64,000 nucleotides of DNA, taken from positions 27,158,001 through 27,222,000 of the forward strand of contig CM097885.1 of assembly GCA_044892525.1 (NCBI GenBank). Direction: 5' to 3'. Positions 19,401-30,204 of the stretch are shown in pieces. The notes below the pieces were generated by a model. That model was not told where the DNA came from. It was given only the letters and a program-made list of their open reading frames with translations, and made no database searches. This stretch comes from Schmidtea polychroa (lineage: Eukaryota). Numbering within the stretch: position 1 is the stretch's first letter; each line of letters starts with the position of its first letter. Made by a program: the position numbers and the translations under genes.

Positions 19401-20902
19401 AATACTACATAATAGGAACAGATAGATACAAGTAGTATGATGTGAGGACTCCAACGCACTTTCAAGGTCATCCCAATGTCCAGATCAAATATAGGTCAAT
19501 TGAATCATTTTATTTTTTAAATTTTATTTAATTAATTATTTTATTATGTTTTTATTTTAATTACTTACTTTAGTTAATTTATAATTTATTACATTTAATT
19601 AATTATTTTATTAATATTTTATTTTTATATTTTACGTTATTTAATTATTTTTTTTTCATTTTTATTATTATCTTACATCTCCATTTAATATATTCTAACA
19701 AGAGCGTAAATTGTAGCAATAATATTAAATATAAATTTAAATATAATGGGCATTAATTTTTTCAAAAAAAGTAATAATAATAATATATTATTAATAATAA
19801 TTAAAATTTATTAATAAATAAACCAAAAAAAAAATTAATTTATTACATTTAATTAATTATTTTATTAATATTTTATTTTAATATTTTACGTTATTTAATT
19901 AATTTTTTTTTGGTTTTTTTATTAATACTTTGAAAATAATATTTTGAAAATAATAATGAAAGAAAAAATATTTTGAAAATAATAATACTTTGCAAAAATA
20001 TTAATAATAATAATAATAATAATAAAAATAATTATAATAACAATACCCTTGTGAATTGTTGAGTGTGAACAATACCCATAGGAGGGACAGAATATTTTGT
20101 CGGATAAACTCATAGTTTATATAATAATAACAATTACAATTATACTTTGAAAATAAAATAAGAATAAATCCCATGGGCGCGTCATTGTCTTTGTTCTAAA
20201 AATAATAATAATAATAATAATAATAATAATAATAATAATAATAATACTTTGAAAATAACTCTGAAAATATTATTATTAATAATAATAATATCCCCCGCGC
20301 GCTAATAATAATAATAATAATAAAAATAATAAAAATTGATGAAAATGCTGAAAATGGTGTCAAAATATGTTTTTAAAATATATTTAAGTTTTAAAATACC
20401 GCAACGTAATATTTTTTTTCTACCCGTTCATTGATTTTGATTGGTCAGAATTTAATAATATGCCCTTTGAGACATGTGAGCAGTACCCTTGTGAGCAGTA
20501 CCCTTGCAACTAGTTGAATGTGACCATTACCCACAAGGGGGCAAAATGTCTTGTCGGATAAACTCTGAGTATATATACATATGGTGGGTTACAGGTACTG
20601 CAAAATCTCTACCTCCTCATGCTGTTTCCAGCGTAACCCAGAATACAATTTATAGCTGACCACTTGATACCCGTTGAGCAATCAACGTTGGTACTGTATC
20701 AAGGGTTTGGGTACTAGCAAAAAGTGAACATGTTTAACATACTATAATTGTCTAGCACCCACTGGGGTTCACGGACTGCCGATAGAAGGCCTATGTCCGG
20801 TTTCTTTTCGTCCCCGTTGCGACAATTAACGTTATGGGAAAAATCAAAATGCCCAGATATGGATGTACCAGTAAAGATTTATTCGGAAAACATGATCAGA
20901 AC

Positions 20903-21364
20903 TTATAGTGTCCTAGTCGATTCTTTCGGAGTAGACTCTGACCCAGCAGAATGAAGCGTTAATTGGGCCTGGCTGGCTTGTCTTATTCTCGCCCGCCCCG
21001 CTTTACCCGGCCGGATCTTCTTCCTCGGAATTATTGGTGGGGTGCACTCCTTCGGTTTGTGGAGCAGCTCACTCATGGGTCGGATCTTGGAAATGACCTC
21101 TCGATAAAGGTCCTGTTGGTGTACCTTTATCTCCAGCTCCTTCACTCTCAGGCGGAGGGCCCGTAACTCAACCTGATCCTGTGCACTCTGGAGTTGCAGT
21201 TGAGTGATCAGCTTCATCCGTTTTTTCATTTCTGCTGGCGGGAACCAGGTACATTCGAAATTCCGGCAATGGGCCTTGACTCGTGCTAGCTTGGCCCAGT
21301 ATTCCTCTGCCAGTTGTTGCGCCCGTTCTCTATCTGCTCGCATCTCTTCCAGGAGTTTTAGCAC
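20903..21364 (-). CDS. Hypothetical coiled-coil protein with basic C-terminus (element cargo; probably a 3' exon)
   Basis: 153-aa GC-rich ORF in an AT-rich context with heptad-like E/Q/R/L runs and a PRKKIRPGKAGRARIR tail. It is preceded on the minus strand by a TTTTAG acceptor at ~21364. Confidence 0.5.
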   Translation of the reverse strand: MLKLLEEMRADRERAQQLAEEYWAKLARVKAHCRNFECTWFPPAEMKKRMKLITQLQLQSAQDQVELRALRLRVKELEIKVHQQDLYREVISKIRPMSELLHKPKECTPPIIPRKKIRPGKAGRARIRQASQAQLTLHSAGSESTPKESTRTL

Positions 21365-21797
21365 TAAAACAAGACAACATTAGTAATTTTCACGTCAGCA
21401 TCAAGTGTCGAGCATTATTATGAGCATCAATACTAAATGAATGTAATCTCCTCGTCGCAGCCCTCCTCTACGCGCACCTAAACCGAGTTCTATGAATCTT
21501 ACCAAACCTTATGGGGCTGTCAACGTTAAGGAAAATTATAGTCAATAGTAATAATAGTCAACGCTATAGAACATCAAAAATCAAGCAATACACGCAATTA
21601 AATTAATATTGACAACCAAAACACAAACAAACAATTAAATTAATATGAACTACCAAGACATAACGAGTAATATTTTACCCCTGGATCAAAGACGTCCATC
21701 CCATTACATAATAACACACTGTACGTTTAATAACAGTGTCATTGCATGATAATTAGTTTTCTATCACAAGTCGTAGTCTTTGGTCACAACGCAGACG

Positions 21798-22282
21798 TTA
21801 GGCGTGTCGCACAACGCTGGCTTTCGGTCCAGTAATCTCCTTGGCTGATCCGGCGGTTCTTCGTGGGCGTCCGCGTTTTCTCGGCTGGTCCGGTCCTCGT
21901 CGAGGACTTCTCTGGCATTCCAGCCCACGGCGAAGAGCTGCGGTCCGCTTTGGATGGCATTGGGCTCGAGCGTAGCCGTCGATGTCCTCCAGCTCGCCGG
22001 CCAGGGTTGCTACCGGTCCACCGCCTCCTTCGCATCGTCGAATGCGTCGCTCAAAGCCAATGAGGTATAATTGATGTACGGTTCCACCTTCGGGATTACT
22101 GGGACTTCGTTCTGGTAGGTCCAATCATGGATCTTATACCAGATCCATCTAGACCTTAGCCGGGCGATTTCTGCGTCCTCCCTCAATCGGAGGGCTTCGT
22201 TTGCCTCCTCGCAGGTAATTCCGAGCCTCGAGTCGGTTGACGAGTGACCTTCCTGTACGCTCCTTGGTTCAGTGTTGAACAT
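21798..22282 (-). pseudogene. GC-rich cargo ORF(s) ending in an AT-hook (PRKRGRPRR), apparently frameshifted
   Basis: Overlapping ORFs 22010-22282 and 21798-22124. The AT-hook core is encoded at 21858-21884. Mini-intron-like signals lie at ~22286-22326. Confidence 0.45.
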
Positions 22283-27196: not shown

Positions 27197-27634
27197 TGTT
27201 TTCGTCTAAGACAAATCAGAAGAGTTTCTTTGTAATTATTCGCATCACACGCTTTATTTGTGCAAAACCATTGTTTGTTAAACCATTTAACGTGTCCAAT
27301 AACTTGAGATTGAGCCATGATTGAATTTGAAACATTGGATAATTGTTCAACACTTTGGCTAGGAAACATTTGAATGGTGTTGATCTTTTTAAGAACTCGA
27401 TTAAATAGAATATCATATTCCTTCTTTTCGGCAATTCCATATTCTGCTTTATTATTCTTTGACATGAAACGATGAACAAAAATTATCCAAAGATCTATGG
27501 TTTGACTTGTAACTTTAAACGAAGCTCCAGTATCACATATAGCACTATCTTTTGCAGCAATTATTCTTTCGATACTTGGTCCAATAGAAGTGTCATAATA
27601 TTCACCAGATGATTTAAAAACATTTTCATTTTCC
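27197..27634 (-). pseudogene. ORF ending in a frameshifted cold-shock domain start (VIGHVKWFN / NNGFAQIKR)
   Basis: Matches the CSD pattern V.G.VKWFN..NG(F/Y)..I.R across a frameshift at ~27275. The ORF then runs into (TTA)n. Confidence 0.5.
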
Positions 27635-28065
27635 ATATTTAACTTCCAGAAAAAACGAATAAAATCAATTCCTTTCACCAAAGCCGCAAATTCAAAATAC
27701 ATACACAATTCACCAGTTTAAACAAAAGATTCCTGCTCTTCAATTAACAAAAAATCAAAACCAAATTCCACAAATTAAAGATCGATTCCATTCTCTACAA
27801 ACTAAATATAAAAAACCACAATATAAACATAAAACTACTTCTCACGTCTGTGTGCGCACACTAACAAGAATCGGTTTAACCATACCGCGCAGACAGACGC
27901 GATAACACTCAGCAACAAACTGCTAGTCAGAGGTAAATGCCAATCCCCCTCTGACTGGTCGAAACAATAATAATAATAATAATAATAATAATAATAATAA
28001 TAATAATAATAATAATAATAATAATAATAATAATAATAATAATAATAATAATAATAATAATAATG

Positions 28066-28630
28066 AGTAGTGTGATGAGTCTTTGTTTTAAAAATAAATG
28101 ATTTGTCTTTTTTTAAAAAGGATGAATCATCGACGAGTCATACAGGGGGCTAGTGTGCAAAAGAATACCTCCCATTTGAACGATGAGTCATCGATGAGTC
28201 TTTGTTTAAATGTCTTTGTTTAAAAAAATACGATGAGTCATATGTATTTTAATGATGAGTCATTTGGCTTTGATTCGAAAATGATATGTCATATGTACTT
28301 TAATGATGAGTCATATGGCTTTGATCCGAAAATGATGAGTCATCGATGACGTCATATGACCTTGGTACTAAAAATAGAATGACCTTGATCTAGTTGCTAA
28401 AATAGAATGCCTTGATGAGTCGTCTATGCGTCACGTGACCTTGTTACTAAAATAGAATGACCCTGGCCTAGTTACCATGGTTACCACCGTTGCTATGGAT
28501 GAGTCACATGACCTTGACCTTGTCATTACGGTTGCTATGGATGGGTCATCGATGAGTCATATGTCTTTGTTTAGTGATGAGTCATCGGTGGAGGGTATAT
28601 GATGAGTCATGGAGCACACTTGTCTCTACT
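28066..28630. promoter_or_regulatory. Subterminal array of AP-1 (TGAGTCA), CRE (TGACGTCA) and TGACCTTG motifs at the right end of element B
   Basis: About nine perfect TGAGTCA plus variants, one TGACGTCA and about five TGACCTTG in 565 bp. Confidence 0.65.
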
Positions 28631-30204
28631 GATACAGAGTGAATCTGCATGTGGAGAATGGTCAATGATGATGATATCTATGCGATGAAAAGAATAAACA
28701 TTATTGTGATAACTTATTATTAACAATTTGATTTATATTGATTTATTCGTGATGACATTATAGAAATTTATAAAAAAAGGAAATGACATCTTTTCAAGAA
28801 TCATTTGAAGCGGCTAAAACTTTAAAATCAATGACAAATAAAAATACATTAAAAATGCTGGACAAATGGATAATTCCAAAAATAGTAACAATTAAAATTT
28901 GCACTTTTAAAAACAGAAAATTCTATTGACTTTAACAGAACAGAATATATTGACATTCAAAATGGAGTGTTAACAGGGATTTCATATATAAGTCGACTGA
29001 TTTCTCAGTCAAATCACCCAAAAAATAAGAGCTTTTAAGAAGAGTTGTAAATTCAGAAATTGATATTCCAATATAATTTAGAGCTATACCTATTTTACAC
29101 ATCCGAGGTCAGGAAGCTATAAGCATTTACATACACATACACACGCATATTTATATATATTTATATATAATACAAATTGAAATATATTTGAGGTGATTGT
29201 TAATTTCATATTTTTAACTTTATTAGTAATTGTGATAATGTAATAAATTTATTGAACCAGTGTTTGTGTTCTTATTTATATAGGAACCATCAAGTTGAGA
29301 TTTCAGAACCTCAACATCATCAATCAAACAATATCCATTTCAAAACCAATAAATATTCTCAAATATCAACTGCTTCCAAACAATAAATCTTGACAATTAT
29401 CTAGATGTTTGTTATTAGTTTTATATACATGTTAAGATCTGTTTGTTAATGTTATTTAATGAAAACGTCTAGAAACTTTATTAGTTCGGTTACTTTTCAT
29501 AACAAAAAAATCAACAGCGCTAAAACTAATTAATATTTATTAAACTCAAAACATAAGCAAGCAATACAATGTTGTCTACATGTAACTATTAAAGGTTTTT
29601 GATATCTAATTCTGTTGTATACAGTAGGTTTTGTAAGAAATCTAGAGAGTAAGAGATCTAAGCTTTTGTCAAATCAAATTTATAAAATGAAAAAACCTCA
29701 TCCATACTTAATCAAAAAAGTGGTCTACCGTTAGATTACCTACCTTATTGAAAAATGCAGATTAGATAAGAGTGTAGCTGACAATATAGTATTAAATTTT
29801 GCTGACGCTTAATAAAGTTTTCTGTTTGGATCTTATTTTAATAATTGAAACAAAGAGCACAAGGAGTGAGAGTCAATACCGAATTTAACCATAATAACCC
29901 AACATTTACATTTTTAGAAATAATGTTTATATTTTTCTTAAGAATTTTAAAAATTATATAAAAATTATCAAATGACTATAAAGCTTTTTTCAAATTTAAC
30001 AAATTTAAATTTAGTTTAAAATTTAAAATTTTATATTTCATTTATTTTCATTTTATAAACACAAATCCAGAAATTAGTGCGTCGTATAATTAAATCTTGG
30101 ATCTATTGTCTGAATGAAAATAAATTAAATATCAAAAATGGAAAACAGATCAAATGTGAACGAAAATAATAAATTATTTAAGTGATTAAAAAGAGAGCTT
30201 GAAG

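Follow-up and report, generated by a model that had tools for sequence, protein, structure and literature searches.

An insertion in Schmidtea polychroa that has the ends of two Polinton families within one 6-bp target-site duplication

How does an insertion whose ends do not form inverted repeats with one another come to carry the target-site duplication of a Polinton? The question is raised by a 9.2-kb insertion in Schmidtea polychroa (assembly GCA_044892525.1, contig CM097885.1, positions 27,158,001 to 27,222,000 of the forward strand); this whole stretch of 64,000 nucleotides is referred to here as the window. Polintons, or Mavericks, have termini that start with AG, of the (AGT)2 or (AG)3 kind, and a 6-bp target-site duplication (TSD), according to the available part of one account (PMC8097293). 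The original prediction for this locus was an asymmetric-ended non-autonomous insertion with such a TSD, and this is borne out by the ends, the TSD and empty sites elsewhere in the genome. The left end belongs to one Polinton family, called A here, and the right end to another, called B, and the two lie within a clean 6-bp duplication. The insertion is probably a gene-less Polinton derivative that was integrated in trans as one molecule with these two ends, and a long terminal repeat (LTR) and a 770-bp repeat in its interior probably arrived later. Searches covered the 781-Mb AT-rich genome assembly.

Two different ends within one duplication

The predicted bounds of the insertion were confirmed. 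It begins with AGTAG at 19431, finishes with CTACT at 28630 and has GATACA directly on both sides (Table 1). Both flanks are halves of one dispersed repeat that the element interrupts. Nineteen non-self loci were retrieved with the right flank, and in 11 of the rows, which represent 10 distinct places, the left and right flanks are separated by exactly 6 letters. These letters are GGTACA in six places, GATACA in three and GATTCA in one. The junction probe was not matched at the remaining 8 of the 19 loci, 7 of which are matches to a neighbouring repeat. Because 10 other copies of the target repeat have a single 6-mer at this position, GATACA is a true target duplication, and the element shares the 6-bp TSD of non-autonomous Polinton derivatives. 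The left flank was also detected in six of seven public sequencing runs; none of the contigs listed from these runs (X1-X6, not all of which were compared) spans the junction, either with or without the insertion.

The ends themselves are alike only loosely beyond 5 bp, as had been predicted. The pattern common to them is AGTAG..A.GTG.G..CTCCA, with 5 identical bases at the tips, and no inverted match between the two arms is better than E 3.7 (BLAST, word size 7). The matched terminal inverted repeats (TIRs) of 46-1,500 bp that are a feature of autonomous Polintons are therefore not found in this element. Where do two such different ends come from? After the LTR and the 770-bp repeat are taken out, a core of 2,550 bp is left, and a segment-by-segment comparison shows it to consist of an A arm (~440 bp) with a B arm (~2.1 kb) joined to it. 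All 11 A..A elements and none of the 12 B..B stretches are matched by the first 120 bp of the core (two 80-bp segments), and at one locus (L014) the match of the A arm runs to 19859. From ~19871 on, the core matches the B..B stretches, and 20351-20460 is common to derivatives of both families.

Both families are resident in the genome, with 85 exact end motifs for A and 531 for B. Symmetric elements of each have exact 6-bp TSDs, A..A elements in 6 of 8 cases in one set and 7 of 9 in another, and B..B elements in 5 of 6 and 4 of 5. The B termini bound a 16,744-bp autonomous Polinton with a 6/6 TSD as well as gene-less giant palindromes, and Pfam matches in a B-bounded copy include A32 ATPase, rve integrase and DNA_pol_B_2. 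An A end is adjoined by a 665-aa open reading frame (ORF) for a DNA polymerase B of the protein-primed kind (pPolB; PF03175, E 6e-29), and pPolB-like sequence is present in 24 of 60 A-end loci, in 12 of which it is closest to this ORF. Because the pPolB beside A ends is 52% identical to the B enzyme, A is a sister Polinton family to B. Both termini can be traced to Polinton TIRs in this way, B through the autonomous copies it bounds and A through the adjoining sister pPolB, and one A end and one B end take the place of the symmetric TIRs of typical derivatives. The original prediction had counted a match of the ends to the TIR of a described Polinton against itself; in substance this is what was found, the TIRs being those of two resident families.

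Table 1. Features of the insertion, its target and the adjacent part of the window (window coordinates)
Feature	Position	Strand	Remarks
Target repeat, left part (unclassified, dispersed)	19362..19424		92-95% matches elsewhere; joins right flank in empty copies
TSD GATACA, left copy	19425..19430		10 empty paralogous sites have one 6-mer
Family-A Polinton terminus/TIR arm (AGTAGTATGATG...), ~440 bp	19431..19870	+	1199 candidates; approximate border on inner side (19860-19935, AT-rich)
Left piece of interior derived from family B (AAT tracts, short repeats)	19871..20577		collinear with gene-less B..B palindromes L101-L106
TSD CATA of solo LTR, left copy	20578..20581		4-bp duplication
Solo LTR, 5,876 bp, TG...CA, Burro-type giant Ty3/gypsy	20582..26457	-	TSD, copies, paired LTRs
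Coiled-coil ORF	20903-21379		in solo LTR
AT-hook-like and upstream ORFs	21798-22315		in solo LTR
TSD CATA of solo LTR, right copy	26458..26461		4-bp duplication
Family-B-derived interior, right piece, with 75-bp minisatellite	26462..27195		up to 10/12 B..B stretches per segment
770-bp high-copy repeat within (AAT)n tract	27196..27965		1872 candidates; motif ORF on minus strand
Family-B Polinton terminus/TIR arm (AGTAGAGACAAG... on minus), 9 TGA(G/C)TCA repeats	27966..28630	-	701 candidates
TSD GATACA, right copy	28631..28636		same empty-site evidence
Target repeat, right part	28637..28772		89-96% matches elsewhere; joins left flank in empty copies
Intronless kinase ORF	11994-12839	-	PF00069
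GIY-YIG fragment	13842-14369	+	PF01541

The interior of the insertion

What does the insertion carry between these ends? It had been described as lacking a visible ORF for pPolB, integrase, ATPase, protease or capsid, and this held for its 11 ORFs of at least 80 aa. With a core of 2.55 kb, the element has neither the genes of autonomous Polintons (pPolB and integrase; ATPase, protease and capsid) nor their size of 13-25 kb. Pfam gave no match for three interior ORFs, and Rfam gave 0 matches at E<=1 on 19400-28700. The coiled-coil ORF, the AT-hook-like ORF, the minisatellites and heat-shock elements (HSEs), which had been described as regulatory cargo, are present, the last as 5 HSE-like motifs (1 mismatch allowed, without a shuffle control). 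As cargo of the element the ORFs and the HSE-like motifs do not stand, because all of them are located in the solo LTR. An ESM Atlas search with the coiled-coil ORF gave generic coiled-coil neighbours only, below the recognition threshold. This ORF is open in most LTR copies. Relatives of ~38-44% occur in Polinton-linked loci (L202, L055, L186, L110:8069-8824), and there is a weak match to an ORF of an autonomous Polinton (E 1e-4 over 27 aa). The relatives could be further fragments of LTRs, or they may represent a gene that both element classes have in common.

The larger of the two repeats is a solo LTR from a giant gypsy element of the Burro type, because it has TG...CA ends and its own 4-bp TSD and the same repeat flanks a giant gypsy interior elsewhere. 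Twenty LTR loci were retrieved, two of them identical copies, and a 4-bp TSD was found in 13 of the 14 with both ends visible. Their flanks are unrelated to the window and the junctions of the LTR in the window were found in none of the 20; the closest copy, L087, is yet a separate insertion with a different TSD. The LTR end motif has 541 exact occurrences, often as same-strand pairs ~30 kb apart. Between the members of one such pair a single frame stays open over at least 3,333 codons and includes MATH, viral fusion glycoprotein, protease, reverse transcriptase, RNase H and integrase, and there is an ankyrin portion. The LTR of this gene-bearing element is 86% identical to that of the window over the 0.7 kb compared. 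Burro/GYPSM1 elements are giant gypsy-like LTR retrotransposons of planarians, and their description in the available portion of PMC6431247 fits this interior. The resemblance includes the ~30-kb LTR spacing and a polyprotein with MATH, fusion glycoprotein, protease, reverse transcriptase, RNase H and integrase, plus ankyrin. Unlike a full Burro/GYPSM1 element, the window holds a solo LTR only, and the match to Burro rests on the published description.

The LTR was probably inserted after the hybrid had integrated, because two LTR-free relatives (L186 and L243) are continuous across the LTR site (20577 to 26462) and no LTR locus shares the window's junctions. A full retrotransposon would have entered the AT tract, and LTR-LTR recombination would then have left a single LTR. 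The 770-bp repeat was likely also inserted into the core later. Elsewhere this repeat has identical borders and unrelated flanks, and A or B ends are absent beside it in 29 of 29 other loci. It had been labelled a cold-shock-domain relic; that label rested on a single short motif, the Pfam cold-shock domain (CSD) was matched by 0 of 5 copies, and cold-shock cargo is rejected. Copies of the repeat often lie in (AAT)n tracts and have a small hairpin at the end, and many keep a frame of 150-170 aa. A tandem array with a period of ~760 bp is found at G000:C3:78.98-79.00 Mb.

Together the solo LTR and the 770-bp repeat make up 72% of the length of the insertion, and both are also found elsewhere beside unrelated sequence. 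Among the loci retrieved, the 9.2-kb arrangement had no second copy. A single cargo-carrying family 9.2 kb in length, as the original prediction had it, is therefore rejected; its ends come from two resident Polinton families, its interior is made of nested repeats, and the supposed cargo is ordinary nested repeats and not special cargo.

Formation of the hybrid and its alternatives

Are there other insertions with one A and one B end? For this, 10 kb were traced from each of 60 A ends, most of which were chosen because they had no exactly matching partner, and from each of 35 lone B ends, which were taken from the first 100 in the list of 531. An inward-facing B end was found within that distance at 6 of the 60 A-end loci, and the flank is shared in 2 of these. 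One (L159) is 2,956 bp long between CCTTTA and CCTTTA (6/6) and consists of an A arm, a decayed A-type pPolB and 32 bp of B. The other (L161) is ~2.95 kb long between AACCAT and AACTAT (5/6) and has ~32 bp of A followed by a B arm that is collinear with that of the window element. At all 8 paralogous sites retrieved for its target the two flanks are joined, in most cases by one AACCAT. The original prediction had proposed that the left and right ends be sought as pairs at other loci; two more A..B cases with other TSDs were found, but the same arrangement did not recur among the loci retrieved. A 100% copy of the L161 right flank at G000:C150:77188-77548, with an A end 2.9 kb upstream, is probably an assembly duplicate and was left out of the hybrid count. 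At L186, which has an A end and a window-like interior, no B end was found within 30 kb.

The length of the TSD and the termini suggest that a resident Polinton integrase acted in trans on short, related terminal motifs. The hybrid itself probably goes back to a switch of strands, or to recombination of A with B molecules, in the course of protein-primed copying. This route is ranked first because the end pieces in L159 and L161 are very short and repeats are shared; the interior repeats and AAT tracts common to A and B would provide the homology for switching. In the route ranked second, a nested A/B pair would have moved by its outer ends and been shortened by deletion afterwards, and nearby and nested A and B ends exist as substrates for this. 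A B end lies within 10 kb in 14 of the 60 A loci (6 of the 14 share one inherited junction, 3 duplicate one place and one was picked for it), and at L175 and L191 B Polintons lie nested inside A sequence. Five symmetric-family elements (L170, L190, L011, L168, L247) have exact TSDs and a second end with only ~13-41 bp of TIR, a hint that the Polinton end that is needed is short.

Several observations weigh against integration of a hybrid molecule. No intact autonomous A element was found. No paralog of the L159 flank covers the junction, hence there is no empty-site support for that locus. Four of the six inward-facing A/B pairs are without a shared flank, two being closed by their own A partner, and an A-end partner within 10 kb was found for 0 of the 35 lone B ends. 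The one nested case that was traced to its far end, the B element at L175, has its own TSD there, so it was not moved as an A..B unit, and no inner end is kept in any of the three hybrids, although the nested route would leave one at first. Finally, the three hybrids have three different junctions and no sister copies among the loci compared. On this sample they therefore look like sporadic products and not a family.

Could the mismatch have arisen in place? A symmetric A..A or B..B insertion may have made the TSD, and later repair of a double-strand break may have overwritten one end with an arm copied from the other family, the copied tract running out to the terminal 5 bp that both have in common; the hybrid would then never have moved as such. 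Each hybrid is single-copy among the loci compared, there are hundreds of donor arms, and both families contain 20351-20460 and the AAT tracts, all of which fits such an event. Gene conversion is also among the routes proposed for mismatched-end Mutator (Mu) elements in the available text of PMC10401008. However, repair in place would require that, on three independent occasions, the old end was lost precisely as far as the terminal 5 bp while the TSD was spared, and the window element contains no remnant of an additional A or B end. We regard it as unlikely.

The asymmetric ends and the real TSD would also suit a dedicated satellite family with regulatory cargo (spliced ORFs, a cold-shock relic and HSEs), and the LTR may already have been inside when the core moved. 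This is highly improbable, as the ORFs and HSE-like motifs belong to an LTR that has its own TSD and lies in unrelated flanks elsewhere, the LTR junctions of the window recur in no other copy retrieved and the 770-bp piece lacks Polinton ends at the 29 other loci compared. The least credible explanation is that remnants of an A and a B element lie 9 kb apart beside a coincident 6-mer. Lone ends of both families are common, but at 10 other places the two flanks of the element adjoin each other with a single 6-mer between them. Among 3,591 pairs of unrelated A and B flanks a 6/6 match has a chance rate of 0.03% and a match of at least 5/6 a rate of 1.4%. A chance TSD is rejected by the 10 empty sites of the interrupted repeat, and the concern raised with the original prediction that GATACA might be accidental did not hold.

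Integration as a hybrid molecule can be compared with known systems. The window element is like Polintons in its AG-starting termini and 6-bp TSD, and both of its ends are TIRs of Polintons in the same genome; it differs from them in its 2.55-kb core without pPolB, integrase, ATPase, protease or capsid and in ends that are not mutual inverted repeats. Non-autonomous Polinton derivatives were reportedly described by Kapitonov and Jurka in 2006. The window element shares the gene-less state, Polinton termini and 6-bp TSD of such derivatives, and its interior is collinear with gene-less B..B palindromes. Unlike the symmetric, amplified A..A and B..B derivatives in this genome, its ends are mismatched and it is without a sister copy among the loci compared. 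It may work like the heteromorphic Mu elements of maize, whose left and right TIRs come from divergent clades according to the accessible sections of PMC10401008. In both, ends of divergent clades lie within a TSD, and the candidate routes described there (nested or adjacent ends, recombination, conversion) are the same. The superfamily and the enzyme are different, and the Mu heteromorphs in those sections are typically multi-copy, whereas the Polinton hybrids were each seen once.

What would this mean for Polintons? In the usual model, two long TIRs pair as a panhandle for protein-primed copying. To our knowledge, the excision, copying and integration of Polintons have hardly been tested. 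Ends from two families with a clean 6-bp TSD suggest that integration, at least, is independent of TIR pairing, and hybrids with only ~32 bp of one end point to a minimal end signal. The chances seem about even that matched TIRs are unneeded for Polinton integration, that ~30 bp of related terminal motif at each end is enough, and that resident families trade ends and form hybrid replicons. If so, the element in the window and those at L159 and L161 would stem directly from end trading, and A-type and B-like ends beside different gene sets (L169-L211-L195, L180-L212, L231) would be its long-term result. Such hybrid replicons would be a Polinton counterpart of the Mu heteromorphs, overlooked by TIR-based searches. 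A TSD-bounded A/B hybrid in three cases, two of them with empty-site proof, gives a handle on the end requirements of Polintons.

Gene trees have led to the conclusion that Polintons undergo exchange, in a study whose search required inverted repeats according to the available text (PMC10748475). Hybrids would be a physical route for such exchange, and pipelines of the kind outlined in that text will miss elements of this type. Mavericks with cargo are known, as the accessible part of bioRxiv 2022.07.12.499685 indicates, and nothing in the window is such cargo. General background can be found in the available portions of PMC11414722, PMC8532177 and PMC3014272. No report of mismatched-end or hybrid Polintons was found in the literature searched, the coverage of which excluded Repbase Reports and subscription journals.

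Composite loci and the neighbourhood of the insertion

Mixed A and B sequence is also seen in larger loci. Seven loci (L153, L164, L167, L169, L203, L210, L240) have one common junction at which a short B terminus, ~90-180 bp where measured, is embedded in A-family sequence; by sequence they appear to be an amplified A/B composite lineage. At G000:C2:120434253-120463453 (L169, L211, L195), 29.2 kb lie between two A ends with the flanks GAGAAT and GAGTAT. This stretch contains a piece of A-type pPolB, a B end in its interior and, in addition, a second set of Polinton genes, in which the ATPase, integrase and putative capsid are 82-86% identical to those of the B family and the pPolB is 51% identical. 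A third, distant Polinton type occurs at L180, L212, L213 (C3:125.73-125.76 Mb) and L231. It has a PLA2-like domain fused to the integrase, an A32 ATPase and a pPolB that is 26-29% identical to the others. It lies between A ends at one place and beside a B-like end at another, and these mixed ends may reflect nesting or end swapping.

Polinton remains are found close to the insertion as well. A decayed A-type end (73%) at 13631-13862 of the window and the interior of a B derivative without intact ends at 7358-8998 lie 6-12 kb to its left. Further left, 117-6144 has mirror-image tandem units (150-202 and 6061-6113; 2531-2585 and 3668-3722), which suggests a palindromic element of ~6 kb. The insertion sits between a putative Hsp70 ORF and putative dynein heavy-chain exons, which we take to be those at 16078-17817 (+) and 30822-61778 (-), respectively.

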